Virus record (IMG/VR): IMGVR_UViG_3300034091_000306
From: an uncultured virus (IMG/VR IMGVR_UViG_3300034091_000306)
Lineage: Duplodnaviria > Heunggongvirae > Uroviricota > Caudoviricetes
Direction: 5' to 3' (one strand)
DNA: 20,000 nucleotides
The notes under the pieces are model-generated. The model saw only the letters and a program-made list of their open reading frames with translations. It did not search any database and was not told where the DNA came from. This document shows positions 1,291 to 18,718 of this stretch, piece by piece (the stretch's first letter is position 1; each line of letters begins with the position of its first letter). The position numbers and the translations under genes are program-made.

Positions 1291-1398
1291 AAGGCCCGAG
1301 ATAGGAGAGGAGCGACGCGCGCGAGCGCTGTAGGGGGAGAGAATCGAGAAGCGCGCGCGAGCGCGGAAGGCGGAGATCTATTTTCGAAGGGGACAATC

Positions 1399-1970: not shown

Positions 1971-1979
1971 CGTGGCGCT

Positions 1980-2097: not shown

Positions 2098-2129
2098 ATT
2101 ACACACGCACAACGTGGAAGGGGACTACC

Positions 2130-2956: not shown

Positions 2957-4092
2957 GTCAACCGAAATGGGAATTCATCGCGAACCTCGGCGACGCGAAT
3001 CCGATCGAGTACGGCGGTTATTTCCTCTACAAGGATTCAACCGGCGCCTACGATTTCGAGGCGGAGCTGCTAGAGGAACCGGAAGACGCCGATTCCAAAA
3101 AAGCGAAGTGGACGGTTCGGCGCGTTTGCCTGGACCGCTGCAAGCTGCAACGGTCGGAGGACGGCGAGCGCATCTATCTCGTCTCCTACGCTTACGATCC
3201 TGCGACGTATCCGCACGCGCTTTCGCAGTATGCGGAATGGTTCGCGAAGGATCTTGACGGTGTCGCGAGCACGATCGGCTCGACTCGTGAGGAACTAGAG
3301 CACGCGCTTTGCGCCGAGGACGGCGGAGAACGTGCGTGGGCATATAGGGCAATCGCAGACACCTACGGATGGGACAATTTCGATTCGTATCCTCTCTTTC
3401 TCACGAAGGAAGAGGTCGAGGCGCGCTACACCGACGGCGAGCTAGGCGATAACTACGCGCTCGATGACGCGGTTAGCCTGAAAAGCGAACACACACGCGA
3501 GGGGCGTTACGCTCTCCGCGCCGTGCATTGCCTGAACGCGGGTCAATACGGCGCCGACGCGAAGCCGGGCGACTTGATCCAATTCGCCTACCCGAGCAGT
3601 CCCGATCACGTGAACCTGGCGCGCGTGCTCGCTCGCGTGGACGCGCCAAGCGAGGGGCCTAACAGACGCCGCATGGGATGGCTCGCCGTCGTCGAGCTGA
3701 GTGTATCTCTCGGCTCCGCGTTCGTTCGATGGATCGATCCCGCGTGGGTGAAGTCGTGCGGCAAGATCCCGCAAGATATGCTCGCCTGGTTTTTCGCCGA
3801 CAAGTTGCCGGGCCTTCCGGCGATTCTGAAGCTCGATTCGCTCGGGGCACTCTCCGATCACTACGTCGCGAAGTACAAGGGCTCATGCGAGCGGTGCATC
3901 TGTACGCATCAGCGCGCGCGTTGTAGCGAGTGCGGCGGATCCTTCACGGTGAGCGTGAAGAACGGTGTCGGAGTCACGGAGCACGACGGCGACACGATCG
4001 ACGGAATCGATCACGAGAAAGACGCCGATCACACGGCGTACGAGGCGGACGGTAGCGGATGGCTGCGTCGTCATCCTGGGAGTGACGAATGA
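2953..4092 (+). CDS. Hypothetical phage protein, probably multi-module
   Basis: About 380-codon ORF coupled at both ends (ATGA); Cys-rich C-terminal segment. Confidence 0.75.
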   Translation: MSQPKWEFIANLGDANPIEYGGYFLYKDSTGAYDFEAELLEEPEDADSKKAKWTVRRVCLDRCKLQRSEDGERIYLVSYAYDPATYPHALSQYAEWFAKDLDGVASTIGSTREELEHALCAEDGGERAWAYRAIADTYGWDNFDSYPLFLTKEEVEARYTDGELGDNYALDDAVSLKSEHTREGRYALRAVHCLNAGQYGADAKPGDLIQFAYPSSPDHVNLARVLARVDAPSEGPNRRRMGWLAVVELSVSLGSAFVRWIDPAWVKSCGKIPQDMLAWFFADKLPGLPAILKLDSLGALSDHYVAKYKGSCERCICTHQRARCSECGGSFTVSVKNGVGVTEHDGDTIDGIDHEKDADHTAYEADGSGWLRRHPGSDE

Positions 4093-4418
4093 GCGCCCTT
4101 CGCTACTCCGGCGAGGTTACGATTCGCGTCACGTGGATCGACACTCCCGGGCGAAACAATCACGGGGGGCACTACCGCTGCACTCTCTCGCGCACCATAA
4201 ACAAGGGTACGCAATGGGAGAAGCGCGTTAGCACCACGCAATACGTAGGAGCGCCGGCCTTCCTAGAGCGTGGCGTCGGGATCGACTCTAGCGAAGCCTT
4301 CGATGACACGGCACATGCCGCGCTCTCCTTCGCTAGCAACGAAGAGACCGCCGAGGATGACGATCCGAACGGATGGGCGGAGCACGCCGCATACAAGGCG
4401 GACGGTAGCGGATGGCTG
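4043..4418 (+). repeat. 23-bp exact direct repeat AGGCGGACGGTAGCGGATGGCTG (4043-4065 and 4396-4418)
   Basis: Read directly; both copies lie near the 3' ends of consecutive ORFs and encode the same peptide. Confidence 0.9.
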
Positions 4419-4472
4419 ATTGCTAGGGCGCCTGCGAAGCGCTGGGGGAAGGAAGAGGCGACGACGTCATGA
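4089..4472 (+). CDS. Hypothetical protein
   Basis: ATGA coupling; shares the AYxADGSGWL motif with the upstream ORF end. Confidence 0.75.
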   Translation: MSALRYSGEVTIRVTWIDTPGRNNHGGHYRCTLSRTINKGTQWEKRVSTTQYVGAPAFLERGVGIDSSEAFDDTAHAALSFASNEETAEDDDPNGWAEHAAYKADGSGWLIARAPAKRWGKEEATTS

Positions 4473-4759
4473 AAATCGATTCCGCGGCAGCGATCAAGCG
4501 AATCCCGCTCGGGACTCGCCTTTACCTGATTCGTTCGCTCAAGGGCCCGCAGGCGCCGAGCGCTCGCATCGTCAAGCAGGTACGAAGCGCCGACGTCATC
4601 GTCACAATCGACGATCCAACGAATAAGAATCACGGGCGCGACTCTTACATGGATCTCCGTGGCGTCCGCGTCGAGCCGCGCGAGGACGGCTTCGCGCTCT
4701 ACGAGAAAGAGGCTAACGAAGTCTGCGCGGAGTATCGGTTTCACGAGGTGGCGCCATGA
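4469..4759 (+). CDS. Hypothetical protein
   Basis: ATGA coupling at both ends. Confidence 0.7.
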   Translation: MKIDSAAAIKRIPLGTRLYLIRSLKGPQAPSARIVKQVRSADVIVTIDDPTNKNHGRDSYMDLRGVRVEPREDGFALYEKEANEVCAEYRFHEVAP

Positions 4760-5016
4760 CACGCAAGCTGCAAGATCCGCTCGACGCCTATCGCGTCTCG
4801 CGAACACCGAAGAACGCGATCAAACCGTGTCCTCATCCTGGCGTGTATCATCTAGGGAGTGACGGGCTAACTGTCGTTCGTCCTCATCCGCAGGCCGATT
4901 CGTGCTTCGCACGCGAGCAAGGCTACGTCATTCTGAAAATTGAAGCGTGGGCTCGCGAAGCTGGCCCGGCGATCGTCGCTGCGTTGAACGCTGCGGGCGT
5001 GAAGGTGGGACGATGA
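4756..5016 (+). CDS. Hypothetical protein
   Basis: RBS GAGGTG, ATGA coupling. Confidence 0.7.
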   Translation: MTRKLQDPLDAYRVSRTPKNAIKPCPHPGVYHLGSDGLTVVRPHPQADSCFAREQGYVILKIEAWAREAGPAIVAALNAAGVKVGR

Positions 5017-5318
5017 ATACGTCAAAGCATGTGCCCGAGCTAAACATCGTGGAATGGGAGAAAGCCGGGGACGGCTATCTCATCGTAACAATCAACGTGT
5101 GCGGCTGTCCGATGCACCTGGAAGCGCACGGCGTAGCGTGGCGCCACGACGACGGAACGATCACGTCGGATCGCCCGGACACCGGGTTACAGATCCCTTT
5201 CGGGGAAGATTCACAATTCGATGAGCTGAACCGCGCTTTCTCATGTGATGGCCCCCAGCAAACGGTCACGATCGACGGCAAGCTTTACGTCCTTTTCGCG
5301 AGCGCGCAGGGGGAATAA
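5013..5318 (+). CDS. Hypothetical protein
   Basis: ATGA coupling; stop overlaps the next start (TAATG). Confidence 0.7.
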   Translation: MNTSKHVPELNIVEWEKAGDGYLIVTINVCGCPMHLEAHGVAWRHDDGTITSDRPDTGLQIPFGEDSQFDELNRAFSCDGPQQTVTIDGKLYVLFASAQGE

Positions 5319-5479
5319 TGAGACGCTTTCGCGTTACTTTGGAGTTAGAACTAGACGATCGCGCGCCGCGTGCAGGCGAGGGACGTCTGAAACAATCGAT
5401 CCCGAACGCGCTCAAGTATTTTGAGCTAGGCAAGGTCACGGCGATTGACGTGATCGAGCAGCAAAAGGTGAAGCCGTGA
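5318..5479 (+). CDS. Small hypothetical protein (53 aa, MRRFRVTLELELDD...), not in ORF track
   Basis: Fills the gap exactly, with TAATG and GTGA coupling. Confidence 0.6.
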   Translation: MRRFRVTLELELDDRAPRAGEGRLKQSIPNALKYFELGKVTAIDVIEQQKVKP

Positions 5480-6336
5480 TCGAACCGAACGATCAAGATC
5501 CGCCGTACAGTGACGGCCCGATTGATAATCCCACTATCAAACGCTACGACGCGCCTACGCTAAATCAGCTGCTACCGCTCCAATCGAGCACGGTGGACGT
5601 AGAGATGCTCGAAAAGGTGCGCGCCGTCCTCGCGGGCGAGCTTGACCCGTGCGAGGCCTCGCCAGCGTGCGCCGCGTGGGTCGCATCCTGCTACAACAAG
5701 CCCGATCCCGACGGCCACGATTGCAGGCTAGAGGCGTGTAACGATCTGCTGGGCATGTCCGGCGTCGTCGCGCTCAATATCGAAGGTGCGGAGACGTACA
5801 CGGACGAAGGGATCCGCATGTGCCCGCCCTTTAGCTACTGCAACGCCGGGGATACCTACGAAATTACGCTCGCTCGTGACCACGAAAATGGACAGTGGGT
5901 TATCGCGAGCTGGGGAGATCTCCTCGAAGAGTACGAGATCGAACACGAGCTAGGCGCCTATGCGACTTTCGAGGAGAAGCCTGATCAGTGTCCCGAATGC
6001 GATTGCGCATCGCTGGAGCTGCACCACTACACCGGCTCTGCACGCGGCGATTCGTATTCTTGGGTTTGCGTTAGCTGCAGTCACCACGTTTTTGCCGTAA
6101 TGGGATTCGATCCGGAAGGCGAGATCGTTACCTATTGCGACATGACGTGCGCGAAGTGCGGCATGACGTGCGCGAAGTGCGGTAAAGTCATCCTTGAATC
6201 GAAATCGTGGGGTCTAGGCGACGTCGGCGATTCGATTATGCCTTCGTATTGCTCGAAAGAGTGTTACGAAAGCGCCGAATGGGACAGGCCCGGCGACGAT
6301 GACGGCGACATCGCAGGCACGGGAGACGAAAAATGA
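5476..6336 (+). CDS. Acidic, Cys-rich hypothetical protein with zinc-finger-like C-terminus
   Basis: 286-codon ORF with CPEC, CVSC, CAKC x2 and YCSKEC motifs. Confidence 0.7.
   Translation: MIEPNDQDPPYSDGPIDNPTIKRYDAPTLNQLLPLQSSTVDVEMLEKVRAVLAGELDPCEASPACAAWVASCYNKPDPDGHDCRLEACNDLLGMSGVVALNIEGAETYTDEGIRMCPPFSYCNAGDTYEITLARDHENGQWVIASWGDLLEEYEIEHELGAYATFEEKPDQCPECDCASLELHHYTGSARGDSYSWVCVSCSHHVFAVMGFDPEGEIVTYCDMTCAKCGMTCAKCGKVILESKSWGLGDVGDSIMPSYCSKECYESAEWDRPGDDDGDIAGTGDEK
6141..6182 (+). repeat. Perfect 21-bp in-frame tandem duplication (MTCAKCG x2)
   Basis: CATGACGTGCGCGAAGTGCGG at 6141-6161 and 6162-6182. Confidence 0.95.
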
Positions 6337-6584
6337 GCACGAAACCTAACGGCGCCGGTGCGGGTCACTGCGATGTCTGTTTCAGAGCCTACACGTGGGG
6401 TTGCGGACATTCCGGCTCACAAGAGCATGAGTATCGACGACACCGTGCAACGAAAGCGCACGCCGAACGCCGGTGCAAGTGCTACGGACACGATCACTGC
6501 GATCCCAAAGCGTGCAAGCTCGCCGGGATTCGCATCTCCGGTTACTTGCCGTTCTATCAACACACGGAAAAAGCGGCGTCATGA
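6333..6584 (+). CDS. Cys/His-rich hypothetical protein
   Basis: ATGA coupling at both ends. Confidence 0.6.
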   Translation: MSTKPNGAGAGHCDVCFRAYTWGCGHSGSQEHEYRRHRATKAHAERRCKCYGHDHCDPKACKLAGIRISGYLPFYQHTEKAAS

Positions 6585-6826
6585 AAGATCGTTGCCGCCA
6601 ATGCGAGAGGCCGCTACGTCCCCTCAAGGGAACGAAGGGCGTCCTCGGCTACGGCTACGGAGGACACGGTTATTTCTGCTCGCTCCGGTGCGCCTGGCGT
6701 TTCGCGATTGACGCAATCGAGGACACCGAAGGAACGCCGGGCGGATCGCTTGCGAAGAAGACGAAGGAAGAGGCGGAAGAGAAGCTCGCCGATCTCATCA
6801 TCGAATCAATCAAACGAACGAGGTAG
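6581..6826 (+). CDS. Small zinc-finger-like protein (CxxC...FCSLRC)
   Basis: ATGA coupling; CRQC...YFCSLRC pattern. Confidence 0.65.
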   Translation: MKDRCRQCERPLRPLKGTKGVLGYGYGGHGYFCSLRCAWRFAIDAIEDTEGTPGGSLAKKTKEEAEEKLADLIIESIKRTR

Positions 6827-6829
6827 ATC

Positions 6830-7159
6830 ATGAAGATCGAAAAATTGGCATCGCTCGCGAAGCTCGAAACGAAAGAAGCCTTCCACACGACCGCAAAAGC
6901 AGCTCTAAAGGAGGTCGCCGACGCGCTCGAATTGCCTAAGGGAAGCTACGAGATCCGCAGTAACAAGGCCGGCCCCGCAATCCTCGGCGAGGTTACGCTA
7001 CACGGTGAGAACATTTACGTGCAGGTCGGCGAATCCCCGCACGGAATCCTCTATCGAACCTGCAAGGGACGAAAGGACTACACGGGAGGCGGCAATCAGT
7101 GGCTGGGATGGGATCGAGCCGATCGGCTTGTCGAGTCAATCAAACGGATTACGAGGTAG
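6830..7159 (+). CDS. Hypothetical phage/plasmid-type protein
   Basis: RBS GAGGT; globular-looking sequence (IRSNKAGPAILGEVTLH...YRTCKGRKDYTGG). Confidence 0.75.
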   Translation: MKIEKLASLAKLETKEAFHTTAKAALKEVADALELPKGSYEIRSNKAGPAILGEVTLHGENIYVQVGESPHGILYRTCKGRKDYTGGGNQWLGWDRADRLVESIKRITR

Positions 7160-7289
7160 AGATTATGAACCGCTCCGAATCTGCGCCGCATTTCTCGTGT
7201 TTGACTAGTCCCCTTGCACGGGCGGTGCGGCGTGGACTCGGGGCGGCTCGACGAGATGTCCGACGAGGCATCCACAGGTGGGGGGCGCG

Positions 7290-7553
7290 GTGAGCCAAAA
7301 ATACAGCTTGGAGGCCGTTTTCGAGGTGTGGAACGACACGACCGGCGAGCGCGTCCAGGTCGGAGCGGACCGTGACGGCGTGGATCTCGTCGAGATCAGG
7401 TCCCTTGCGAGCGATGCGGCCTTCACCGGCTCCGTCATGCTCACGGATGAGCAGGTCCCCCTCGTGATCGACGCGCTTACACGCTACATGGCGTGGAAAA
7501 ACGAAGCGAACAGGCAACGAAAAAACTTGTCGGACGGAAAGACGAAAACTTGA
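7290..7553 (+). CDS. Hypothetical protein
   Basis: GTG start after a G-rich RBS; typical codon usage. Confidence 0.6.
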   Translation: MSQKYSLEAVFEVWNDTTGERVQVGADRDGVDLVEIRSLASDAAFTGSVMLTDEQVPLVIDALTRYMAWKNEANRQRKNLSDGKTKT

Positions 7554-7567
7554 CGGACGGAAAGATG
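7522..7567 (+). repeat. 23-bp imperfect tandem repeat overlapping a possible sigma70-type promoter
   Basis: AAAACTTGTCGGACGGAAAGACG / AAAACTTGACGGACGGAAAGATG (21/23). The second copy gives TTGACG(7550-7555)-17 nt-TACAAG(7573-7578). Confidence 0.7.
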
Positions 7568-7585
7568 AGAGCTACAAGAGAATCG

Positions 7586-7802
7586 ATGATCCTCTACAAC
7601 GTGACTTTCATGGACAAGAACGGCCTTCGTACGCTGGTGGACGACGCACGAGACGCTCGACGCGGCGAAGGAATGCGCCGCCACCGACTTCGAAGAGGGG
7701 TGGACAACCGATCTCGTAGTCGATCTCGAAACGGGAGAACGCTTCGTCGCCAAGGTGACGGGCGTTCGACTCGAAGCCGAAGCCGAGATCAAGCATGGGT
7801 GA
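7586..7802 (+). pseudogene. Frameshifted or chimeric small ORF
   Basis: MILYNVTFMDKNGLRTL in one frame; the protein-like continuation WWTTHETLDAAKECAATDFEEGW...EIKHG* is in the +1 frame with no ATG of its own. Confidence 0.4.
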
Positions 7803-7841
7803 GTTCAAAAAGATCGCCGACACAACACCGAGGGAGAAGAC

Positions 7842-8165
7842 ATGACAACGGAAACAACGACGAACGGAACCGCGACGACGAAGACGGAAGAGAAACCGAA
7901 GCCGACGAAGGATGAGATCAAGGCGATGATCTCCGCCTACATCAAGGCGGATGACGACGTGACGACTGCGGAAGCGTTGCTCAAGAAGGCGCTGGAAGTC
8001 CGCGGTGTTGCCGCCAAAGAAATCCACGACAAGTCAGGCAAGGCGAAATACATGATTCGCGGCGAAGTCCTCACACTCACTTCGAGGAAGTCCAAGAAGA
8101 CGGGCAAGGAGACGTACTTCTTCAAAGGTCAAACCGATGACGACGTCATCGGCGGGGATGACTGA
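7842..8165 (+). CDS. Hypothetical Lys-rich protein
   Basis: Strong RBS GAGGGAG; typical codon usage. Confidence 0.8.
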   Translation: MTTETTTNGTATTKTEEKPKPTKDEIKAMISAYIKADDDVTTAEALLKKALEVRGVAAKEIHDKSGKAKYMIRGEVLTLTSRKSKKTGKETYFFKGQTDDDVIGGDD

Positions 8166-8347
8166 TGAAAGCGCGAAGGCGTACAATGAGAGTGCGCGCT
8201 CCCGTCTACGAGATTCTGGAGCGCGAAGACCATTTCATCGTCTGCCGGATCTATCGCTCACGTATTGAAGCCGAGCGGGCGGTCAAGAGCTGCGAACGAG
8301 CGGATCGCGCGGCGGCGACGCGGTTAGGCGTGGAGCTGAAACAATGA
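8165..8347 (+). CDS. Small basic hypothetical protein
   Basis: TGATG and ATGA coupling. Confidence 0.55.
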   Translation: MKARRRTMRVRAPVYEILEREDHFIVCRIYRSRIEAERAVKSCERADRAAATRLGVELKQ

Positions 8348-8571
8348 TCGAATGCAGTGCCGACCTAGGGCATCCATGCGATGCAGACGACGGCCAGCCG
8401 TGTCCAGCGTGCGTCCAAACCGCACATGAGATGCGCGAGGAGTACGATAGAGCTTCGCCGGAAGAGCGTCTCTACGCACGTCTCGATGGCGATCTCGCAC
8501 GAAAGAAGGCGTACGTCGAGGACATGATCGGTGCAGGGCGCGGGCATCTCTTGCGCGACGATGAACGATGA
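8344..8571 (+). CDS. Hypothetical protein
   Basis: ATGA coupling, GGAG upstream. Confidence 0.65.
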   Translation: MIECSADLGHPCDADDGQPCPACVQTAHEMREEYDRASPEERLYARLDGDLARKKAYVEDMIGAGRGHLLRDDER

Positions 8572-8702
8572 CTATCGCCGTCTACACATCCAGCCGATGC
8601 AAGAACTGCAAACGGCGGTATCGCTACCTCTGGACAACGCCGGTCACCGGCCTCTGCTCTCGGTGTGGTGGCTCTGCGCCGCCAAGGAAGCGCAAAACAT
8701 GA
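8568..8702 (+). CDS. 44-aa zinc-finger-like peptide (CKNC...CSRC), not in ORF track
   Basis: ATGA-coupled on both sides; MTIAVYTSSRCKNCKRRYRYLWTTPVTGLCSRCGG... Confidence 0.55.
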   Translation: MTIAVYTSSRCKNCKRRYRYLWTTPVTGLCSRCGGSAPPRKRKT

Positions 8703-9082
8703 TCATCGCCGCTCCCACCTACGCCATTCTGAAGCTGGACGATGGTTGGTTCGTCGTCCTCCGCCGTGTTGCTGGCGGAGTTCCGGCCGAGAACGATCCG
8801 GCCACGACGATCGCAACGCGCTCGGGGAGAGCGAAGCCGGCAAGGTTTCCGCCCGATCGGCGCGTAGAGGCTGAAGCCTTCATTTATACCCAACAGCTCG
8901 CCGACAAGGCCGCTGCGTCGCGCCTTCAAGTTACGCTCAGTGCAAGCGCAAACCCGAACGCAGACGAGCGTGCGGCTGTCGTTCGGTTCCTGCGTAGCTT
9001 CGAAGGACGATTTATGCCCGACGAGATCCCTTGGGATGCCATAGACGCCATCGAGCGCGGCGATCATCATCCATACCCATGA
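8699..9082 (+). CDS. Hypothetical protein
   Basis: ATGA coupling, AAGGA upstream. Confidence 0.65.
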   Translation: MIIAAPTYAILKLDDGWFVVLRRVAGGVPAENDPATTIATRSGRAKPARFPPDRRVEAEAFIYTQQLADKAAASRLQVTLSASANPNADERAAVVRFLRSFEGRFMPDEIPWDAIDAIERGDHHPYP

Positions 9083-9252
9083 GCCATCCTCTACAGCCCA
9101 TCGTCGAGGATCTCCTTCGCGAGATCCATCGGCAAGATCGTGCGCTACAGCGGGCGATCAACCGCGGTGACGATGCGTGGGCGACGATGCTCGCGAAGAA
9201 GGAGGGTCTACAGCAGGCCCTAAGCATCGTACTCAAACACAGGAATCGATGA
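9079..9252 (+). CDS. Small helical hypothetical protein
   Basis: ATGA coupling at both ends. Confidence 0.55.
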   Translation: MSHPLQPIVEDLLREIHRQDRALQRAINRGDDAWATMLAKKEGLQQALSIVLKHRNR

Positions 9253-9701
9253 TGGCTACGAAGTTTCGCATCGCGCAGCTGTTTGACTTCGCCGGGAACC
9301 TAGGCTTACGCACGCGCATCGGTGGCATCGATGCAACCTACACCCCGCAGACCCGAATTTGGGAAGGCATGATTACGCTCGGTATCTCTCCTCGCCTACT
9401 CGTTAGACGTCCGGAGATGGGTGTGAGATATCTCGCATCGCAACTCGCACACGAGCTAGGACACTACCTGATCGCTCCGAAATCGCGCAGGCGAAGGAAG
9501 GACTACGGCATTCCGCCTGATTCTACGTCCGCATTTTGGACGACGGACGAGACCAAGGCGCGCATCGTCGAACACTACATCCGAGCGTACTTTGGCGATC
9601 CGACGGCGCTCAAGGATCCCATCCGTCGGTTTGCGCGAAATCGTCGCAGCATGGGAGATCTGAAGGCGATCAGAAAGTGGTGGCAAGATGGTCAAGCATG
9701 A
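9249..9701 (+). CDS. HExxH motif protein (zincin/ImmA-IrrE-like metallopeptidase fold)
   Basis: LAHELGHY motif with a downstream E (DETKA). Confidence 0.55.
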   Translation: MMATKFRIAQLFDFAGNLGLRTRIGGIDATYTPQTRIWEGMITLGISPRLLVRRPEMGVRYLASQLAHELGHYLIAPKSRRRRKDYGIPPDSTSAFWTTDETKARIVEHYIRAYFGDPTALKDPIRRFARNRRSMGDLKAIRKWWQDGQA

Positions 9702-9767
9702 GCTGTCATGCTTCAAGCGTCACGTGTCTCCTAAGCGCATTCAACGCATTACGCAGAGGCGCAAACG

Positions 9768-10193
9768 ATGAACGACGAAGACGAAGTCAAAAGGTACCTC
9801 AAGACAATAGGCGGCATGCTCAAAGAAGAAATCCCGTCGGATGTCTGCTTCGTACTTTTCATCTACAAACAATCACGCCGCGAAGCGTTCTACGTCTCTA
9901 ATGGAAACCGCGCCGACGTGCTAAATGCACTCGACGAATGGCTCGTGAAGACAAGCGGCGCGCTCAACGTTGGGAAGAACGAAAAGAAGGCGAAGACGCC
10001 CGAGCATATCGACAGTCGCTTGGAGCTGGAGCGCAAATGCGCCGAGATCGGCAAGGTTATCGCCGGAGCCGCGAAGCTCTCGCTCTTCCTGTTTTCATTC
10101 GGTGAGAACGGAAGCGCGGCGTACTACACGAATGAACCCTCAGCGAGAAAGAACATCGCCGCATGGATCAAGCAACGCAGGAGCCTCTCATGA
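9768..10193 (+). CDS. Hypothetical protein with two similar halves
   Basis: IGG..FVLFIY...AFYVSNG is echoed by IGK..LFLFSFG...AYYTNE. Confidence 0.7.
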   Translation: MNDEDEVKRYLKTIGGMLKEEIPSDVCFVLFIYKQSRREAFYVSNGNRADVLNALDEWLVKTSGALNVGKNEKKAKTPEHIDSRLELERKCAEIGKVIAGAAKLSLFLFSFGENGSAAYYTNEPSARKNIAAWIKQRRSLS

Positions 10194-10705
10194 AAAAGAT
10201 CGGCTACGCGCTGCTACTCGCAGCGGCGTGCGGAGGTTCTCCGTTCGAAATCTCCGCCGACGATGCTGGATCGCGTGTTGTCGATGCTACCGCTGCCGAA
10301 GCGAGCGTTGACTCCGCTACCGAAGCAAGCATTGATGGTACTGTATCCAACGATGCGGGCAACAGTGATAGCGGCATCGCGCTGGACAGCAGCGTCCTTG
10401 ATAGCGGAGAAAGACTCGATGCGGGGATCGATGTCATCGAAGTAGATTCTTGTGCTACCAGACCCTCGGTGACAAACAGTTCTTGTGCGGGACAGGAAAT
10501 TACATATCCCAGCAACTTCTGTCTTTTTCTAATCACCGATGCTGTGAGCACTGGGGAATACATGACCGAAATCACGCCCGCCGCGTGCGCGTCGTGGTGC
10601 ACATTCACATGCGCGTGCTTGATCGAAGCCGGCACATGCGGAACCGGAGCACCGGCTTGCATGTTTTATTCAACAAGCTTTATCTTGGAATGCGATGATC
10701 GATGA
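10190..10705 (+). CDS. Predicted lipoprotein with D-A/S-G low-complexity linker and Cys-rich C-terminal domain
   Basis: MKK-hydrophobic-LAAAC lipobox; repeated DAG/DSG/EAS units; RBS AGGAG. Confidence 0.75.
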   Translation: MKKIGYALLLAAACGGSPFEISADDAGSRVVDATAAEASVDSATEASIDGTVSNDAGNSDSGIALDSSVLDSGERLDAGIDVIEVDSCATRPSVTNSSCAGQEITYPSNFCLFLITDAVSTGEYMTEITPAACASWCTFTCACLIEAGTCGTGAPACMFYSTSFILECDDR

Positions 10706-10781
10706 AGAAGCCTCCGATGCAACCGATCTACCTCGACGGAACGCCACACACAAAACATTGACAACAGAAAAGGAAAAACGA

Positions 10782-11219
10782 ATGGCAGCCACAAAGAAAG
10801 TTCCCGTAGTGAACATCAAGGATGCGAAGCCTGTATCCGTCAAGGAACCCAAGCCTAAAACCGTCAAGGAAAAATCGTCGAAACGTGTCTACAAGCAATG
10901 GGTCACCGGAGATGACGCTTTGACTTTGCACCTGACAATCGATCCTGATGACGAAGACAACCCGATTGTCGTTGACGTGCAGGACAACGAAAGCGAAGAG
11001 ATCGTAACGCTCGCGATCGACACTAGCGGATGCAAAGAAATTGCAGAGCTGCTCGACAAGGCGCGATCGGTGATCATTGCCGTCGAATTAGGCAAACAAG
11101 TGGAAAGCGATCCCGAGCCTCCGGAAGAGGATGAAGATCCTGACGACCAGCAAGTCGAGATCGACGAAGAAGAGGAAGAAGAAGAGGAGGAGGAAGAGGA
11201 GGAAGAAGAGACCGAGTAG
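10782..11219 (+). CDS. Hypothetical protein with basic N-terminus and poly-Glu acidic tail
   Basis: RBS AAGGA; ends in a long Glu run. Confidence 0.75.
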   Translation: MAATKKVPVVNIKDAKPVSVKEPKPKTVKEKSSKRVYKQWVTGDDALTLHLTIDPDDEDNPIVVDVQDNESEEIVTLAIDTSGCKEIAELLDKARSVIIAVELGKQVESDPEPPEEDEDPDDQQVEIDEEEEEEEEEEEEEEETE

Positions 11220-11237
11220 AAATGCGGTCTCGTCTTG

Positions 11238-11285
11238 CTGCATTACACCGTAGTGCAGTTTCTGCTTGACGGTGTATAGCAGAAA
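11238..11285 (+). promoter_or_regulatory. Intergenic double hairpin with complementary loops, overlapping TTGACG (-35-like)
   Basis: CTGCATTA/TAGTGCAG and TTTCTGCT/AGCAGAAA stems; TACACCGT(11244-11251) is complementary to ACGGTGTA(11269-11276). Confidence 0.5.
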
Positions 11286-11319
11286 TGGTACCCACAGTTG
11301 ACCGAGAGGTAGGGAGAGA

Positions 11320-11805
11320 ATGGCAGCAGCAAGAAGCGCTCGTGTGGCTGCAAAACACCGCACGAAGAGGAAGGGTACACCCCCAAGAGGCTCCAACGGA
11401 GACGAGTACCTCTACGCGATGGGCCCCCTCGGAGCAGCTCAGGTCCGCATCGAACGCGAGGGCGAGCGGCTGAGAAAGTGGATGCTCAAGCTGAAGGGTT
11501 TCGCCCTCCCATCAAGCGACGCCGTTGATGCGCTCGAGGAGGCATGCCTTCAGGTAACGAAGGCGGTAAGAGCCCTCAGCAGGATCCCGGAGAGCTGGCG
11601 TCCCGCACGCGGTACATTGGGGATGGCCCCAATCGAAGAGGGAGCCATGGTCGAGGTTCGTGCAAAACATCAAGGCAAGTACGAAGGCATCATCGACGGC
11701 GACACGTCGATGAGAGTTCTGAAGATCGTAGGAGGGCGCGTGATCGTAGATCTGGGAAAGGGGCTCAAGATGCCGATCCTTCGCGCGCACGTCGTGGCGG
11801 TCTGA
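11320..11805 (+). CDS. Hypothetical basic protein, possible C-terminal SH3/KOW-like beta domain
   Basis: RBS GGGAGAG; beta-rich C-terminus (GAMVEVR...MRVLKIVGGRVIVD). Confidence 0.7.
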   Translation: MAAARSARVAAKHRTKRKGTPPRGSNGDEYLYAMGPLGAAQVRIEREGERLRKWMLKLKGFALPSSDAVDALEEACLQVTKAVRALSRIPESWRPARGTLGMAPIEEGAMVEVRAKHQGKYEGIIDGDTSMRVLKIVGGRVIVDLGKGLKMPILRAHVVAV

Positions 11806-11806
11806 G

Positions 11807-12490
11807 ATGATTGACGACAACCCGCTCGAGCCGCAAGGCTGCGCTGCCTGCGACCTCGGCGAGAAGTTCACAGACGAACGCGCGTTCGTTCACACGGGCG
11901 TTGGCGCCTTCTGCAAGGGGAAACAAATCACGAAGGTGCCAGACCTCGGTGTTGACGTCGTCGAGAGTGTTGTATTCACAAAACGAAAGCCGGGACGCCC
12001 ACGCAAGGTGCCCGACGGGGCCCCCACAGTGGGGGGCTCGGCTACGGTCGAGATCAACGCGCTCGTCATGGGCGTCGTCCCGACCGATGTGGCGCGCCTC
12101 TCAGGCCAGCGTGCGACCGGACACCCATCTGTGGGTGCCCCGTCGGGCAGTGTGCAGCCAACACCGCCCGCAGCCGCAGCTGCCCCGAACAACAAGTGCG
12201 GGAAATGCGGAGCCGTCGGTCATGTCGAGCAAGATTGTTGGGTGACCGCGCGTGATGCAGCGAAGCGCGGTATCTCTGCCGCGGATCTCAAGAAGGCGTT
12301 ACTCGTTCCGAAGAAGATTGCTGCAGCGCAGAAGGCAGCGGCGACGAACGGGTGTACAATCTGCGGCGGAACCAAACACAGCACGGATGATTGTCCAGCG
12401 AATCCGGCGAATCCGCCATGTGACACGTGCGGTCTCCGTCACAGCAACGCTGGTCCGTGTCCGAACGCCAAGTTCTTCAAGAAGAGGTGA
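11807..12490 (+). CDS. Nucleic-acid-binding protein with AT-hook and CCHC zinc knuckles
   Basis: KRKPGRPRK AT-hook; CGKCGAVGHVEQDC and CTICGGTKHSTDDC (CX2CX4HX4C); further CDTCGLRH..C. Confidence 0.7.
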   Translation: MIDDNPLEPQGCAACDLGEKFTDERAFVHTGVGAFCKGKQITKVPDLGVDVVESVVFTKRKPGRPRKVPDGAPTVGGSATVEINALVMGVVPTDVARLSGQRATGHPSVGAPSGSVQPTPPAAAAAPNNKCGKCGAVGHVEQDCWVTARDAAKRGISAADLKKALLVPKKIAAAQKAAATNGCTICGGTKHSTDDCPANPANPPCDTCGLRHSNAGPCPNAKFFKKR

Positions 12491-12585
12491 GAGATGGCTG
12501 ACGAAGTGTATGCGCGTTTCAAGTGCATACAAGAAGCGGATGTCTCGGCATCGTGTAACTCACGCGCAATGGGCGGAGAAGAAAA

Positions 12586-13080
12586 ATGGCTGACGAAGAG
12601 AGCACATTCAAGGACGAGATCACGACGCCTGCCGATCGCACGCACGTGGATGTGCTGAAGCGTAACAAGTGGGCGCGCATTCGGCAGGATACGCTGATGG
12701 ATTGGGCTCAGATTGAGGGTCCGATTTCAACAGCGCGTGAGGACGAGCTGATTCGCATACGCTTCGGTGCGCGTTCAACAGCAACCGTACGTCGACGCTG
12801 GGCGACTTGCACTCGTGAGGACTTGATTGCGTGGTTGAAGGAACAGGACGAGGAACCGCTCCCTGCGATCAGTGCACAGGCGCGGCGCTTCTTCAAGGCA
12901 TCGGACATCGCCGCCGTTCGTCTCGATCGCGATGGAGCGCGGATCGCTGTTTATGTCGGGACACCGCCAGACTTCGTCAAGGGTCCGTACGATCCGGGAT
13001 CGGACGATCCGTGGACGAAGAACCTGCTTGCGGTCTGGATGAAGGACGGGGAGCCGGATTCGGAGCCAGAGGGGCTGTGA
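12586..13080 (+). CDS. Hypothetical protein
   Basis: GGAG RBS; GTGA-coupled to the next gene. Confidence 0.7.
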   Translation: MADEESTFKDEITTPADRTHVDVLKRNKWARIRQDTLMDWAQIEGPISTAREDELIRIRFGARSTATVRRRWATCTREDLIAWLKEQDEEPLPAISAQARRFFKASDIAAVRLDRDGARIAVYVGTPPDFVKGPYDPGSDDPWTKNLLAVWMKDGEPDSEPEGL

Positions 13081-13616
13081 AAGTTCCTGATTTCAAGTTG
13101 CTCGAAGACGCCGTCGCTCCACGCATTCTCGATGCGGCCCGCGCGGCGTCGAAAGCGTTGACGGCCGCCGGCATTCGTCATGTACTCATCGGAGGCTTAG
13201 CCGTCGGCGCATGGGGCTACATTCGTGCGACCAAAGACGCTGACTTTTTGGTGGGGCCAGAGGCCTTTGAGCAACATGCTGGAGGTATCGTTACGTTCAA
13301 ACCCGGCGTACCGATTGAGATTGGCGGTGTTCCAGTAGATCTACTCATGGTTGATCGCGTTGGAGAGCTTGATATGGATCAGGAAGATCCTCTGAAAAGC
13401 AGAGGTATTCCGATTGTCGATATCGAGCTTCTTGTCTATCTAAAACTTGTCGCGTTTCGGCGGCGAGACAAAGAAGACGTCGTCGCACTACTGAAGGCCG
13501 GACACAACGATCGAGAAATCCGTACGTTTTTGGAGAACACACGGTCCTTTTGGGCTGGGTCCCACGATTTGCTTGATCGTTTCGAGGAACTTGTTCGATT
13601 TGCGGATGAGGACTGA
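13077..13616 (+). CDS. Nucleotidyltransferase, Pol-beta superfamily (AbiEii/DUF6036-like)
   Basis: LIGGLAV...RATKDADFLV (GG + RxTxDxD) and the C-terminal LKL..RxxDxxD signature; GTG start coupled to the upstream stop. Confidence 0.8.
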   Translation: MKVPDFKLLEDAVAPRILDAARAASKALTAAGIRHVLIGGLAVGAWGYIRATKDADFLVGPEAFEQHAGGIVTFKPGVPIEIGGVPVDLLMVDRVGELDMDQEDPLKSRGIPIVDIELLVYLKLVAFRRRDKEDVVALLKAGHNDREIRTFLENTRSFWAGSHDLLDRFEELVRFADED

Positions 13617-13634
13617 CTGTCCAAGGAGATCGAA

Positions 13635-14108
13635 ATGAAAGCCACGTCGAAGAACAAGATCGTCAACGAAGAGGAGAAGGATGAGTACATCGATCTCATC
13701 CAAACGAACCTCTCCGCGACGTTTCGCACGCTCCAATATTTGGGACGCACGACGTCTGTATCTGGAAGTGCGCAAGGCATCCTTCTTCGCGAGCTCGCAG
13801 AGTTCGTAGCCGGCGAACTACTCGATGCAGGGCAAGATCCAGAGGAGGCCGAAGAAACATTACTGAAGGCGCTCGAAGACGTCATCGACTCCTCGGAGGA
13901 AGAGGAGGAGGAGGAAGAGGGGAACGAACAACTGCCTTCTATTTCATCTCCAGACAGCGGCTTCGGGCGATCCGTGAAGAATATGATGCAACCAATCATC
14001 ACAAATCCCGTTCCGGTGAAGGAGGTTCGTCCGGTCGGCGGCCTACCGGGGCCCGGTATCGATCCACGCGATGGCGCGGCGGGTGGTGAGGACATCGGCA
14101 ACGATTGA
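13635..14108 (+). CDS. Acidic hypothetical protein
   Basis: RBS AAGGAG; Glu-rich tract. Confidence 0.7.
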   Translation: MKATSKNKIVNEEEKDEYIDLIQTNLSATFRTLQYLGRTTSVSGSAQGILLRELAEFVAGELLDAGQDPEEAEETLLKALEDVIDSSEEEEEEEEGNEQLPSISSPDSGFGRSVKNMMQPIITNPVPVKEVRPVGGLPGPGIDPRDGAAGGEDIGND

Positions 14109-14265
14109 TGGTTGATGGAGGCGAGGATTCGGTAGCGATGGGTGTACCCGTCCGGTCACTGCGTTATCGCGCCGAACGACGTCCGCTTTTTGAAAGCGAC
14201 GATCGCGAGTCCGCCCGTGTCCCCGAAGGGTCATCCGTGAGGACTACATCGCAAAGGATGCGGAG

Positions 14266-14724
14266 ATGAGTTCGCAAGACGACTTCGGCGATCGCATGAA
14301 GCTCTACGAGGGGCTGACGAACGTGCGTCTACTTCCAGGCGCCATCGTCTGCGCGCGTCTCGACGGGCGCAACTTCCACTCGTTCACGAAGCACGCGAAG
14401 CGGCCGTTCAGCGAGACGTTCCACCGAATGATGGTAAACGTGACGGAGCACCTCGTCGTCGAGAGCTGCGCGACTGTCGGCTACACGCAGTCCGATGAGA
14501 TTAGCCTCGCGTGGCTCGATCACCCGTTCTTCGACGGCAATGCTCAGAAGATGTGCTCGACGCTGGCCGCGATGGCGAGCGTGCGCCTGAACGCACTGGC
14601 GTGGCACTACGATGACGGAAAGGCCAGCCGCGACGTCAAGGCTGGGCTCAAGTGGTCGCAGGACCCGACGTTCGACTGCCGCGTGTGGGTCGTGCCGTCG
14701 ATCGTCGAGGCGGCCACGACCGTC
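14266..14724 (+). pseudogene. thg1: Thg1-like tRNA(His) guanylyltransferase, N-terminal half (translated as an in-frame fusion running to 15243)
   Basis: GDRMKLYE, RLDGRNFHSFT, YTQSDEISL, FDGNAQK and FDCRVWVVP are canonical Thg1/TLP motifs; similarity ends after PSIVEAA. Junction uncertain by roughly +/-10 bp. Confidence 0.9.
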
Positions 14725-15243
14725 ACCGACTGGAACAGGGAGAAGGAGACGTACAACACGAAGCCGTCCCCCGAGCAGGACGTCTTTCTTACTCCCCGCT
14801 ACGCGCTCCAGCAGCTTGGCACCGAGTGGGGCCGGAGCTGCTACCCGAACATCTGGGTCGACTACGCTCTCCGCACGGCGAAGAAGCTCCTCGAGGAGGA
14901 TCGCCGTGAGCCCAACATGGTGAACTACTACTCGGCCAAGTCCGGGCTGATGTTCGTGGGGGGCTTGGAGAAGCCGGTGGGCGTCGCCATCTCCGACGTC
15001 CGCTTCAAGAACGAGATCGACGCCATCCATGAGGCCGGCGGCATCATCATCCGCATGTCGCGTGGAACCGGGCTCTCTGGCGTCGCCGGAGAGCATCGTT
15101 CCGAGACCGAGCAGCAGGGGCTCGACGACGAGCTCTTCGACATCACCATCGACAACCGTGAGTGGTCCCTCGAGCAGCTGGAGTCGTACATCGACCAGAT
15201 CGCCTGGGCCCACGTGGGAACGCACAAGGAGAAGACGACATGA
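14725..15243 (+). pseudogene. Deoxynucleoside monophosphate kinase (T4 gp1-like), C-terminal part lacking the P-loop, fused to the Thg1 N-half
   Basis: TPRYALQQLGTEWGR...IWV, ISDVRFKNE and HRSE motifs of phage dNMP kinases; no GxxGxGK Walker A upstream. Confidence 0.85.
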
Positions 15244-15920
15244 AGTCCATGCCCGACATGAACGAGTTCGCGAAGAAGTGCCACATCGCCTCCGAGGCGA
15301 AGGGGTGGACGAATCTGAAGCGCACCGATGCGCAGACGATCAACCTGATGGTCTCCGAGCTCTCGGAGGCGATCGAGGACTTCCGCGACCGTCACGCGGA
15401 CAACGAGATCTACTACGAGGTGAAGATCAAGGTCGGTGACAACGTCGAGGTGAAGAAGGTCACGGACCTGACCGTTCTAGCGAACCTGAAGCTCCTCGAC
15501 GGGAAGTTCGGCCGTGGCGACGTCTACCTCGGCTCGAAGCCCTGCGGCATCCCGATCGAGCTCGCCGATTGCATCATCCGCATCGGCCAGCACTGCGGCA
15601 CGCACAAGTACGAGCTCGCCGGCGCCATGGGCAACAGCCAGTGGGCGACGATGAAGCACCGCACCGACATCAACGAGGCCATCGCTGATGCATCCCTGCA
15701 CCTCTCGATGGCCTGGATGTACTCCCCGCAGTCCGGTCTGGTCACTGGTGAGGGAGCGAAGGTCGTCGGTCCGGAGATGATGGCGATGCACCTCGCCGGC
15801 GCGCTCTGGTCGATTCTCTACTTCTGCGAGGGCGCTCGGATCGACATCTGGGACGCGGTCGACATGAAGATGTCCTACAACGACACGCGCCCGATGCTTC
15901 ACGGCGGCAAGGCGATCTGA
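15240..15920 (+). CDS. MazG-like NTP pyrophosphohydrolase (all-alpha NTP-PPase family)
   Basis: LMVSELSEAIEDFR...IELADCIIRI...KMSYNDTRPMLHGGK; ATGA coupling with RBS AAGGAG. Confidence 0.8.
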   Translation: MKSMPDMNEFAKKCHIASEAKGWTNLKRTDAQTINLMVSELSEAIEDFRDRHADNEIYYEVKIKVGDNVEVKKVTDLTVLANLKLLDGKFGRGDVYLGSKPCGIPIELADCIIRIGQHCGTHKYELAGAMGNSQWATMKHRTDINEAIADASLHLSMAWMYSPQSGLVTGEGAKVVGPEMMAMHLAGALWSILYFCEGARIDIWDAVDMKMSYNDTRPMLHGGKAI

Positions 15921-16519
15921 TGCTCGACGGCAATCAGGTCGTTCTCCTGGACGTGGACGACGTCGTCTGTCGCTGCGTCCAGGGGATGGCCAACGAGGCA
16001 GGGAAGAAGCTCGGCGTCGAGATCAGCGAGGACGACGTCAAGACGTGGGACTTCCACGACACCATCGATGGGCCCGGTCTCAAGGAGCACATCGAGGAGA
16101 AGATGAGCGAGAAGGGCTGGTGCCTCTCGCTCGAGCCCTTCCCTGGGGCGATCGAGGGCGTGAAGCGCTTGATGACGATCGCCGAGATCTTCTTCGTCAC
16201 TGCTCCCTTTCACGGGGAGCACTGGATGCACGAGCGCCGCTCGTGGCTCTACTCGAACTTCGGCGTCGATCGTGACCGCGTCATCCAGGGGCACTCGAAG
16301 TTCCTGGTGCGTGGAGACGTCTTCGTCGACGACAAGGTCGAGAACCTGGTCCGCTGGGAGAAGTACGGCAGGGAGAACAACATGAGCGGCGTTCCAGTCC
16401 TCTGGGATCGACCGCACAACCGACTTCACCCTGGAGCGGGTTCCCTCTACCGTATCGGCAGTTGGGGTCAACTGTACGACTTCGTGAAGAGAGGACCACG
16501 TGGCAAGGAAGAAGGCTGA
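15920..16519 (+). CDS. HAD-family 5'(3')-deoxyribonucleotidase (NT5C-like)
   Basis: LLDVDDVV motif I, FVTAP, GDVFVDDKVENL, LWDRPHN. Confidence 0.85.
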   Translation: MLDGNQVVLLDVDDVVCRCVQGMANEAGKKLGVEISEDDVKTWDFHDTIDGPGLKEHIEEKMSEKGWCLSLEPFPGAIEGVKRLMTIAEIFFVTAPFHGEHWMHERRSWLYSNFGVDRDRVIQGHSKFLVRGDVFVDDKVENLVRWEKYGRENNMSGVPVLWDRPHNRLHPGAGSLYRIGSWGQLYDFVKRGPRGKEEG

Positions 16520-16763
16520 GAAGCCCCAGGAGACTCGAGAGCGCGTAGCGGGCCCGGACCGCATCAAGTTCCTGCGCTCCGAGCTCCCTGGACTCGATGC
16601 GGAGCTCGAGAGCATCTACAACGTCATGGCTGCTGCAGGCAGGGAGCCGAGCGAGAAGGTTCAACGCCTGATACTCTGGGTGAAGCAGGAGACTGCCGTT
16701 CTGAACGACCCAGAGTACGACCCGGACTTCAAGTGCGAGGAGTGCGGATCAGGGCAAGGGTGA
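16500..16763 (+). CDS. Hypothetical protein
   Basis: GAGAGGA RBS before GTG; C-terminal CEEC. Confidence 0.65.
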   Translation: MARKKAEKPQETRERVAGPDRIKFLRSELPGLDAELESIYNVMAAAGREPSEKVQRLILWVKQETAVLNDPEYDPDFKCEECGSGQG

Positions 16764-16765
16764 GC

Positions 16766-17165
16766 ATGAGCGCGAGAACGCCGAAGAAGATGCCTCCTGG
16801 AATCCAACGACAGATGGCGCCCCCTCCGGGGGCACGGGTTCGCTTCAAGACGGTAGCGATCAAGGAGAGCGACGCGATCAAGTTCGCCAAGAAGCACGAG
16901 GACGCGCTGAACGAGCTCGTCGCCGATGGGTGGAACATCGCAGGGATGATGCAGAGGGGGGAGGCGCTCATCATCAGCGCGCAGCGACTCGAGGTCCCCC
17001 CGCTGCCTCCTCCGCCTTCGCAGGCTGAGCCTGAAGAGGCTCCTCCGTTCACGCTCCCCCAGAGCACGACGGACGACGGGCACGTGGAGATCGTGTACTC
17101 GTTCATCGAGAGGGGGAAGCATCGGTCGGTCACCTGTCTGTCGATGCCCGACGCGATGAATCACG
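16766..17165 (+). pseudogene. Hypothetical protein truncated at the right junction (frame reads on out of phase through the thg1 C-half to 17464)
   Basis: Protein-like up to ...MPDAMNH; afterwards the Arg/Ala-rich text is the shadow of the thg1 frame. Confidence 0.6.
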
Positions 17166-17522
17166 CTCTGGAGGCAGCAGGACGCCTCGCGCAACTCCGT
17201 CCAGATGGCAGCGCGGCACCACTTCTCGCACAAGGCGTGCAACGATCTGAACGGGAAGGAGCTACAGGAAAAGCTCTTCACCGAGGCCGGCGTGAACTGG
17301 TACGACTATCCCCCCGCCTTCAAGCGCGGGACGTTCATCAAGCACGCGAAGACGCGACGCGCGTTCACCGCCGAAGAGCTGGCCGAGCTGCCGCCGCTCC
17401 ACGATGCCAGGAAGGACCCGAGCCTCGTGGTCGAGCGCCGCATCCTAGTCGAGTGCGACCTTGACCTACGCGGGATCGAGGACCGCGCTTCGACACTTTT
17501 TGCAGACCAGGAACGGGGTTGA
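17166..17522 (+). pseudogene. thg1: Thg1-like protein, C-terminal half
   Basis: CTC TGG AGG CAG CAG GAC... = LWRQQDASRNSVQMAARHHFSHK...LQEKLF...GVNWYDYPPAFKRGTF; in-frame TGA at 17157-17159 just upstream. Confidence 0.9.
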
Positions 17523-17570
17523 CGTGGGTTCGATCGTGTCCCCGGGGCGGGAGGGGAGGAATGAGACGTA

Positions 17571-17822
17571 ATGGGAACTGGAACGAGGGGCGACAAGACC
17601 GGCCCGGTATGGCGCTTGGCGACTGATCGTGGGCGCGGGTACATCACCCCCGAGGATGTGGGCGATGCCATCAACGCTGGCGCGACTCGTGAGGAGGTGT
17701 GGCGAGACGTGCTGATCGCCGTGGACATCAAGTCGGCAGAGGATGCCTCGCTTTGCGCGTTCATGGCACTCAACAAGTTCGATTCGCTCAGCTCCCCGGG
17801 GCGGGAGGGGAAAGCGCGATGA
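17571..17822 (+). CDS. Hypothetical protein ending SPGREGKAR
   Basis: GGAGGA upstream; ATGA-coupled to the next ORF. Confidence 0.7.
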   Translation: MGTGTRGDKTGPVWRLATDRGRGYITPEDVGDAINAGATREEVWRDVLIAVDIKSAEDASLCAFMALNKFDSLSSPGREGKAR

Positions 17823-18088
17823 GTAACGAGCGCACGCCGATTACGCACGTCGCCATTCGTTTCCGCGGAGTGGTGTACTCGCTACCACGCCCGAGCAGAC
17901 ATCATCACGTCATCCGCGAGATCATTCGGTTGAATCCCGATGTGTGCTCAGTGAGCGGCGAGGAGCAAGGCTTTCTTGACGAAAGCGGACGGTTCCTCAG
18001 TCGCGCAGCGGCACTCGTGAGCGCGGTCAAGTTCGGTCAACTGCGCGCCGAGCCGCGAGGCGTCCTCACGAGCGAGGATTTGTGGTGA
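17819..18088 (+). CDS. Phage-type hypothetical protein (RHHH...EQGFL...GRFLSR...SEDLW)
   Basis: ATGA coupling; motif pattern recalled from small phage proteins, not checked by search. Confidence 0.75.
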   Translation: MSNERTPITHVAIRFRGVVYSLPRPSRHHHVIREIIRLNPDVCSVSGEEQGFLDESGRFLSRAAALVSAVKFGQLRAEPRGVLTSEDLW

Positions 18089-18137
18089 CCATGAAGCTGT
18101 CCCCGGGGCGGCGGCGGGAGGGGAAGCAGGAGAAGTA

Positions 18138-18299
18138 ATGGCGCTCGTGTGGTTCACCGTCTCGATGTTACTTGCGGGCACGACCTGCGCGCTCGCCGTC
18201 GAAGTGCGGAAGTTGCGGGACAGTCTGCGCGTACGCGATGTGCTGCTCGGTTGGTCAAAAAGGAAGCCGTCCATGGGGCGGGAAGGGAAACGGCGATGA
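18138..18299 (+). CDS. 53-aa membrane-anchored/signal-peptide protein ending SMGREGKRR, not in ORF track
   Basis: RBS AGGAG; hydrophobic N-terminus MALVWFTVSMLLAGTTCALAV; ATGA-coupled to 18296. Confidence 0.6.
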   Translation: MALVWFTVSMLLAGTTCALAVEVRKLRDSLRVRDVLLGWSKRKPSMGREGKRR

Positions 18300-18718
18300 A
18301 TAGCGAGGTGTCCGCGCAGACCCGACGAGAGCAGATGCGAGCCCAGTCTCGTAAGGAGGCGGAGTGCATCTTCAAGCTCGCCGGTTTCGAGATTCGTCAC
18401 ACGTGGGAACTTGCAAACGGATACTGGCCCGACGCACCCGACTACGACGATGTTCGCACACCGTGGTGGCTGTTCTTGACGGATATGGGTCCGATTCGCA
18501 TCGGGCGCCGAAAGAGAGTGATCGAGATCGACTGGCGCGCCTGCGACGTTCGCGGTGAGGTAACCGAGGACGAGGTGACCAAAGAGAATTATCTCGTTCA
18601 CGCCTACTCCAGCGAGAAGGCGATTGAGTACATGCGCGCGCTGCGAGCACTGTCCCCGGGGCGGGAGGGGATAGTGATCCAGTGTCCCGACTGCCTCGAG
18701 AACATCCGATGCGCTTGA
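18296..18718 (+). CDS. Hypothetical phage protein (LANGYWP...PWWLFLTDMGPIRIGRRKRVIEIDW)
   Basis: ATGA-coupled start; Trp-rich core; reads through a junction motif (LSPGREG). Confidence 0.75.
   Translation: MNSEVSAQTRREQMRAQSRKEAECIFKLAGFEIRHTWELANGYWPDAPDYDDVRTPWWLFLTDMGPIRIGRRKRVIEIDWRACDVRGEVTEDEVTKENYLVHAYSSEKAIEYMRALRALSPGREGIVIQCPDCLENIRCA

Follow-up and report, generated by a model that had tools for sequence, protein, structure and literature searches.

A phage Thg1-like gene split by part of a nucleotide-metabolism operon that is incomplete at either end

We have analysed a stretch of 20,000 nucleotides from the uncultured Caudoviricetes virus IMGVR_UViG_3300034091_000306 (this whole stretch is called the window here), concentrating on a locus of the plus strand (14266..17522) in which a Thg1-like gene is found in two pieces. 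The first piece (14266..14716, +) codes for 150 residues that end in ...PSIVEAA and include the palm domain, and the second (17166..17522, +) codes for a further 118 residues and the stop codon. Between them lies a block of tightly packed genes (14717..17165, +) that corresponds to part of a nucleotide-metabolism operon and has lost both of its ends; alignment with intact thg1 genes detected no homology of the thg1 type between 14716 and 17166. The first piece is read as part of a chimeric open reading frame (ORF) of 325 residues (14266..15243, +), in which the Thg1 N-terminal half (PHROG 4717) continues in frame into the C-terminal part of a deoxynucleoside monophosphate (dNMP) kinase (PHROG 139). 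According to the ORF list, all the genes judged real across the locus are encoded on the plus strand.

The identity of both pieces was clear from profile searches. The chimeric ORF matched the Pfam family PF04446 with an E value of 3.3e-24 (residues 9-144 against positions 2-130 of the 130 in the model) and the score of the N-half, 85.7 bits against a cut-off of 29.2, was obtained over the full model, i.e., the palm domain is there. In Pfam, Thg1-like proteins are represented by PF04446 and PF14413; the C-half gave no match at E 0.01. With PHROG 4717 ('tRNA-His guanylyltransferase') both were recognized: residues 4-150 of the N-half correspond to profile positions 2-143 of 250, and positions 147-213 are matched by a frame that follows a TGA at 17157-17159, is open from 17160 and has its first ATG at 17205. 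The two Thg1 pieces therefore abut on the profile without overlapping. They are also similar to the same intact relative, P0003, to which the N-half is 77% identical and the C-half 82% (residues 141-257 of P0003). The closest intact relatives are all metagenomic and 70-91% identical among themselves.

The exact break points could be located by aligning the window at the nucleotide level with four relatives that carry an intact thg1 (L081-L084). Homology stops at 14714-14716 and restarts at 17165-17166, leaving 8-10 bases of the relatives without a counterpart between the two pieces. In L081 this missing stretch codes for Asn-Val-Phe, and the Asn is invariant in the 20 intact Thg1 proteins that we used as the reference set for conservation. 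After ...VEAA the window reads TTVTDWNREK..., where dNMP kinases related to the chimeric ORF, both full-length ones (P0033 and P0028) and short forms (P0007 and P0037), have GALG-TTITEWN. The Thr-Thr-Val codons (14716-14724) thus belong with the kinases, and the insert extends from 14717 to 17165, 2449 bases in all. In other words, thg1 has lost 8 bases, affecting three codons, at the break, these have been replaced by the insert, and the gene is otherwise undamaged. An earlier note on this DNA had described a thg1 gene split by a block of ca. 2.44 kb that begins and ends in the middle of genes, and the profile matches, the nucleotide alignment and the structure of the block (a kinase without its start, an unknown gene without its end) all bear this out. 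It had, however, let the N-half run up to 14724, and this left boundary has to be moved by 8 bases. Joining 14724 to 17166 is in frame, as it had stated and as the arithmetic of the two frames confirms, but the Pro-to-Trp spacing that the note considered restored by this join is produced by the borrowed kinase codons, and its conclusion that little or nothing had been lost was slightly wrong, three codons including an invariant Asn being gone.

Neither half shows signs of decay. Together they retain 76 of the 77 columns invariant among the 20 relatives and 50 of the 55 that are nearly invariant. Of the six columns lost, three are located at the break itself, and the N-half keeps every invariant column. 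In the AlphaFold model of P0003 (mean predicted local distance difference test score, pLDDT, 89.4) a strand (124-132) is followed by a two-residue turn and a helix (135-161), and the break maps after residue 139, in the first turn of this helix. According to the literature (PMC2904730), the region following the palm is a module of its own, composed of five helices and two strands, whose conserved charged residues probably take part in forming the active site and in holding the tRNA. In the window this C-terminal module is not part of one polypeptide with the palm, as it is coded 2449 bases downstream and in another frame.

Such an arrangement in a metagenomic record immediately raises the suspicion of an artefact of assembly or of library construction, a possibility that had been put forward earlier for this locus. 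We have checked the junctions in contigs assembled separately from each of four public runs (X1-X4). The left junction was crossed without a single difference by contigs from X1 (14449-15160), X2 (14626-14884), and X4 (14582-14815), that is, by three runs with three study codes (all under one habitat label, peat, and dating from 2019-2020). The right one was crossed, also with zero differences, by an X1 contig (16835-17233) and by L152, a separate public metagenome contig of 1702 bases that is 100% identical to 16712-18413. The depth in X1 is even over flanks and block (ca. 3-5.6), a weak hint since these are contig-level data. The two junctions have at most 4 bases in common, and for k-mer assemblers 4 shared bases are too few to produce a false join. 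The bridging runs are not completely independent, since the source sample may be among them and a single campaign may have given rise to the studies. Nevertheless, the split is real and not an assembly artefact, and a chimera has become hardly credible.

The block itself looks like a piece cut out of an operon. Its first gene is the kinase (14717..15243, +), of the T4 gp1 type and recognized by PHROG 139 (deoxynucleoside monophosphate kinase; residues 159-313 of the chimeric ORF, E 3.6e-23) and 58-72% identical to its relatives, which has the C-terminal two thirds of the fold and lacks the first ca. 79 residues. Full-length kinases of the family PF21448 (P0028 and P0033) align with it only from residue ca. 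79-80 onward, and in tblastn residues 79-234 of P0033 correspond to 14713-15192 of the window. The P-loop (GxxGSGKD in the relatives) is absent from the fragment, and no counterpart of the kinase N-terminal part or of its P-loop region was found anywhere in the window. The fragment is probably inactive, to judge from the missing P-loop. It is followed by an intact MazG-like nucleotide pyrophosphatase gene (15240..15920, +; PHROGs 3301, 9236, and 5658 'pyrophosphatase', with weak tblastn similarity to phage MazG-like genes), by an intact gene of the NT5C family of 5'(3')-deoxyribonucleotidases (15920..16519, +; PF06941, E 3.4e-20, and PHROG 420), and by a small ORF of 87 residues starting with GTG (16500..16763, +), taken from the ORF list, which has no Pfam or PHROG match and no assigned function. 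The ATG of the MazG-like gene overlaps the TGA of the chimeric ORF (ATGA, 15240-15243) and the start of the NT5C gene overlaps the stop of the MazG-like one (TGATG, 15918-15922), so the genes are arranged as in an operon. The last one, which we call orfX (16766..17165, +), is represented only by its N-terminal 133 residues. These are 68% identical to two homologues, P0121 (182 residues) and P0122 (154 residues), but the similarity ends at ...SMPDAMN (17161), and the ca. 42 residues by which the homologues run further are missing from the window; the ORF itself goes on to 17464, overlapping the Thg1 C-half in a different frame. The block thus begins and ends inside genes. Its GC (guanine plus cytosine) content is not distinguishable from that of the flanks.

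Some relatives of the truncated kinase have a feature of their own. Five phage dNMP kinases (P0050, P0061, P0071, P0075, and P0085) are 379-407 residues long and contain an HNH endonuclease domain (PF13392) of ca. 155 residues. It is inserted in frame into a variable loop that comes after the P-loop part and before the LTPRYALQQLGT motif, with no obvious intein.

One can imagine from this that a homing endonuclease cut the kinase gene of the donor and that the broken end was then joined into thg1, which would be a narrower version of an illegitimate insertion and not exclusive with it. The five kinases with an HNH domain are among the 120 relatives listed, the loop covers residues ca. 72-103 in P0033 numbering, and the break in the window (79/80) falls inside. 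Still, this scenario seems rather unlikely to us: there is no endonuclease gene in or beside the block, neither the right end of the block, inside orfX, nor the break of thg1 would be explained by it, the donor sequence was not recovered, and the loop is variable, so that a coincidence is plausible.

We looked for any machinery that could have moved the block and found none. The plus-strand ORFs (Pfam and PHROGs) and seven minus-strand ORFs (Pfam) include no transposase, integrase, endonuclease or intein. An Rfam scan of 13000-18500 up to E 1 gave no group I or group II intron, its only match being snoRNA-like and below threshold. Terminal repeats of the block, direct or inverted, do not exceed 4 bases, i.e., CACG at 14715 and 17162 and TCAC at 14723 and 17161. 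Both the absence of mobility genes and long terminal repeats and the presence of these short microhomologies agree with what had been noticed before. A transposon or insertion sequence can be discarded, as there is neither a transposase nor inverted repeats and the 8 target bases were lost rather than duplicated. The same applies to a group I or II intron, with no Rfam intron match at the ends of the block, and to an intein, given that the block consists of five separate ORFs with stops and no Hint/intein family and that the residues after the break are those of a kinase. An integrative or excisable element was also rejected, for lack of a recombinase, of repeats longer than 4 bases and of a joint skipping the block in the contigs of the four runs.

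A related idea is that the block acts as a switch, being excised from the DNA or spliced from the RNA so as to restore thg1. The CACG direct repeats flank the block and some of the joins across it are in frame, which would suit such a role. On the other hand, no recombinase, intron-encoded protein, intein domain or Rfam intron is there to carry it out, and the block is bounded by pieces of ordinary genes, unlike a dedicated element. The true 8-base Thg1 sequence is missing at the site, and a thg1 restored by cutting out only 14717-17165 would lack eight bases and be shifted in frame. The joint expected from an empty site was not present in the contigs of the four runs, in which rare variants get lost. 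We find a switch very improbable and, among the origins considered in the earlier note, it is the recent illegitimate insertion that fits the data: the ends in mid-gene, the 8 replaced bases, the absence of decay and a variant of the block without thg1 flanks in another run, described below.

We have compared the arrangement with other sequences. Among the best 120 of 3268 protein matches to the chimeric ORF there is no second protein with both Thg1 and kinase parts, and only the window's own protein exceeds a query coverage of 66%. An exhaustive search of 1.84 billion protein representatives gave the same picture; within the best 150 of 7255 matches, the ones inspected, there is no fusion of both parts, each match covers one part and the top score (206 bits) is far under what a fusion would be expected to give. 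The exact junction pattern had 0 matches in viral contigs, and a single-protein search with the Thg1 N-half returned no match. Because the halves are undecayed and no other such fusion was found, the insertion looks recent. We also searched for an empty site, that is, a relative with the same neighbours and an intact gene. However, tblastx of the window flanks against the closest contigs with intact thg1 (L081-L086) detected homology only within thg1, and therefore no such relative was found among these six.

As to where the block came from, the fourth run (X3, with another organism label) holds only 14770-16867, at 95-99% identity and with no depth on the flanks, and the 18 differences listed from the block in the window are all synonymous. 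The block is therefore also present as working genes elsewhere, without thg1 at its sides, and these low-depth contigs hint weakly at a foreign donor. Other traces are scarce. No MazG-like relative from viral contigs exceeds 40% identity, kinase and MazG loci were found together on a viral contig four times (and just one of these pairs lies within a few kb), and no relatives of orfX appeared in viral contigs or GTDB genomes.

Taking all this together, we believe, with a probability of about 70%, that a recent single event of illegitimate recombination placed a piece of 2449 bases from an operon into an intact phage thg1 and thereby inactivated the gene. The source of the piece might be a related phage or another place in the same genome. 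It would have entered where the C-terminal module begins, in the first turn of its opening helix, replacing 8 bases of thg1, either as a linear fragment captured at a double-strand break or through two template switches during replication. The joins are blunt or nearly so, target bases were lost and the passenger is truncated at both ends, features that fit either fragment capture or a double template switch.

The consequences for gene expression can be predicted to some extent. Translation from the thg1 start would pass through the kinase fragment as far as the ATGA overlap with the MazG-like gene and, since the left junction is in frame, the three intact passenger genes (MazG-like, NT5C, and the small ORF) are probably expressed from the resident thg1 signals. 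A promoter scan of 13500-18200 detected 0 promoter-like sites, and there were four terminator-like sites versus 2.7 expected. Thg1, in turn, is most likely inactive, considering that its two modules are apart, that the invariant Asn was lost, that the C-half has no ribosome-binding site, and that orfX overlaps it out of frame.

There are several arguments against this interpretation. The undecayed state of the halves would also fit a continued selection on an enzyme made of two pieces, and the break is near the boundary between the palm and the C-terminal module, where a split would be most tolerable. The arrangement occurs in at least three runs from 2019-2020, so that it is not strongly deleterious. 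Elsewhere in the contig of ca. 140 kb to which the window belongs there could be another copy of thg1, a complete dNMP kinase or the site of the donor and, contigs being prone to drop rare variants, the absence of an empty site is weak evidence.

Some of these arguments would suit an enzyme that still functions, with the palm-kinase chimera and a separate C-terminal module (started at the ATG at 17205 or at an unusual start around 17160) assembling non-covalently to repair the 5' ends of tRNAs. The position of the break at the beginning of the module, the nearly complete set of invariant residues and the persistence of the arrangement in several runs all speak for it. Yet no Shine-Dalgarno-like sequence stands directly before 17160 or 17205, whereas the genes of the block and those downstream have one. 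The ATG at 17205 is 13 codons into the C-half, past the conserved WRQQD motif that is part of the LWRQQDASRNSVQ segment, and a product started there would lose this segment, in which the residues W, R, Q, D, A, R, N, S, and Q do not vary among the 20 relatives. In addition, orfX is read over the C-half in the other frame, and the missing Asn is as much of a problem for an enzyme in two pieces. Neither are there evident split forms in other genomes, as thg1 is a single gene in all 80 viral loci kept and in the near-length matches (3268, versus 48 short ones). One candidate for a natural split Thg1, P0136 (locus L269), turned out to be a contig-end artefact, its frame being open to the edge of the contig; P0007 and P0037, whose kinase ORFs start with MKKGALG, come from contigs that measure 1690 and 1014 bases, respectively, and may likewise be artefacts of this kind. 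To a two-piece Thg1 we would thus give only a small chance. The chances are slim for the more general notion that the split is a working arrangement, either a Thg1 of two polypeptides or a chimera with a use of its own, which may conceivably lie in anchoring the translation of the captured genes or in acting with a separately encoded N-terminal part of the kinase. If true, we would have here a chimeric or split enzyme that has only just arisen, naturally, in a phage.

The neighbourhood of the locus deserves some comments. A 19-base motif, TCCCCGGGGCGGGAGGGGA, is repeated on the plus strand after the end of thg1 (17539-17557, 17793-17811, ca. 18100-18121, 18270-18288, and 18653-18671), with four matches (0 expected from 200 shuffles) and one copy with an indel. 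The copies precede the small genes downstream of thg1, most of them 10-30 bases before the start, and the block, unlike these resident genes, contains no copy. The motif includes a GGAGG-like ribosome-binding sequence and reads SPGREG in frame. It might act as a promoter or translation element common to these genes, or it might represent a peptide end that is repeated; when folded it showed no clear structure, with z-scores between -2.0 and +0.65. Still further downstream, a DNA methyltransferase gene starts at 19680 and leaves the window at 20000 (+; PHROG 56, E 3.5e-28). On the other side is a long run of orphan genes (60-13616), where only one of 21 plus-strand ORFs scanned has a PHROG match (2091-2732, PHROG 421, function unassigned). 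It includes an ORF of 227 residues (11807-12490, +) with three Cys-x2-Cys-x3/4-His-x4-Cys motifs that resemble zinc knuckles, also with no PHROG match.

Two observations refer to Thg1 in other genomes. Cellular Thg1 relatives are at most 50% identical, mostly from metagenome-assembled genomes of Gemmataceae and Myxococcota, and those nearest to the phage clade (L320-L377, 47-50% identity, from Gemmataceae/Planctomycetota and Myxococcota) provide a weak hint of host range. In the viral contig L270, the start of an intact Thg1-like gene (5590-6411) is overlapped over 14 bases by the end of an ORF (4896-5603) that is similar to HNH-type endonucleases and has CxxC and HH motifs.

Thg1-like genes are well known from phages, with 162 phage records that hold a relative, including 201phi2-1, GAP32, and CcrPW, and in jumbo phages the protein is discussed as an enzyme for restoring the 5' ends of tRNAs (PMC7824862). 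The nearest solved structure to the intact relative P0003 is that of the Thg1-like protein (TLP) from Bacillus thuringiensis (PDB 4KGK, E 7.5e-39). Unlike these bacterial and phage TLPs, the gene described here lacks three codons at the break, its two pieces are 2449 bases apart, and the first of them continues into part of a kinase. If the gene is indeed inactivated, then phage thg1 would be dispensable in this lineage.

The presence of several kb of unrelated genes inside a gene is also reminiscent of the sigK/skin type, in which a gene is interrupted by an excisable element. The likeness goes no further than the split itself, as here there are no recombinase, no attachment repeats and no excised form (among the contigs), and the ends are those of ordinary genes.

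The mosaicism of phage genomes by illegitimate recombination, a topic treated in PMC2327257 and PMC3945230, is a closer parallel. As in such mosaics, few bases are shared at the joins, no dedicated recombinase is involved and a foreign block of genes has been gained. In surviving phages, nonetheless, junctions are usually found at gene borders, while here both are inside genes and three of them (thg1, the dNMP kinase, and orfX) have been damaged, so the product looks as if selection had not yet cleaned it up. Illegitimate joins in the middle of genes are to be expected as the raw product of mosaicism, and the random joins presumed to lie behind phage mosaics are rarely caught before selection removes the damaged products. 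In this case the position of either junction is certain to one or two bases, it can be told which gene was hit, which piece came in and which bases were lost, and several peat samples contain the product. The case illustrates cleanly how a gene cassette can be gained in nature at the expense of an accessory gene. It is a new instance of a known process and reveals neither a novel mechanism nor a novel type of element.

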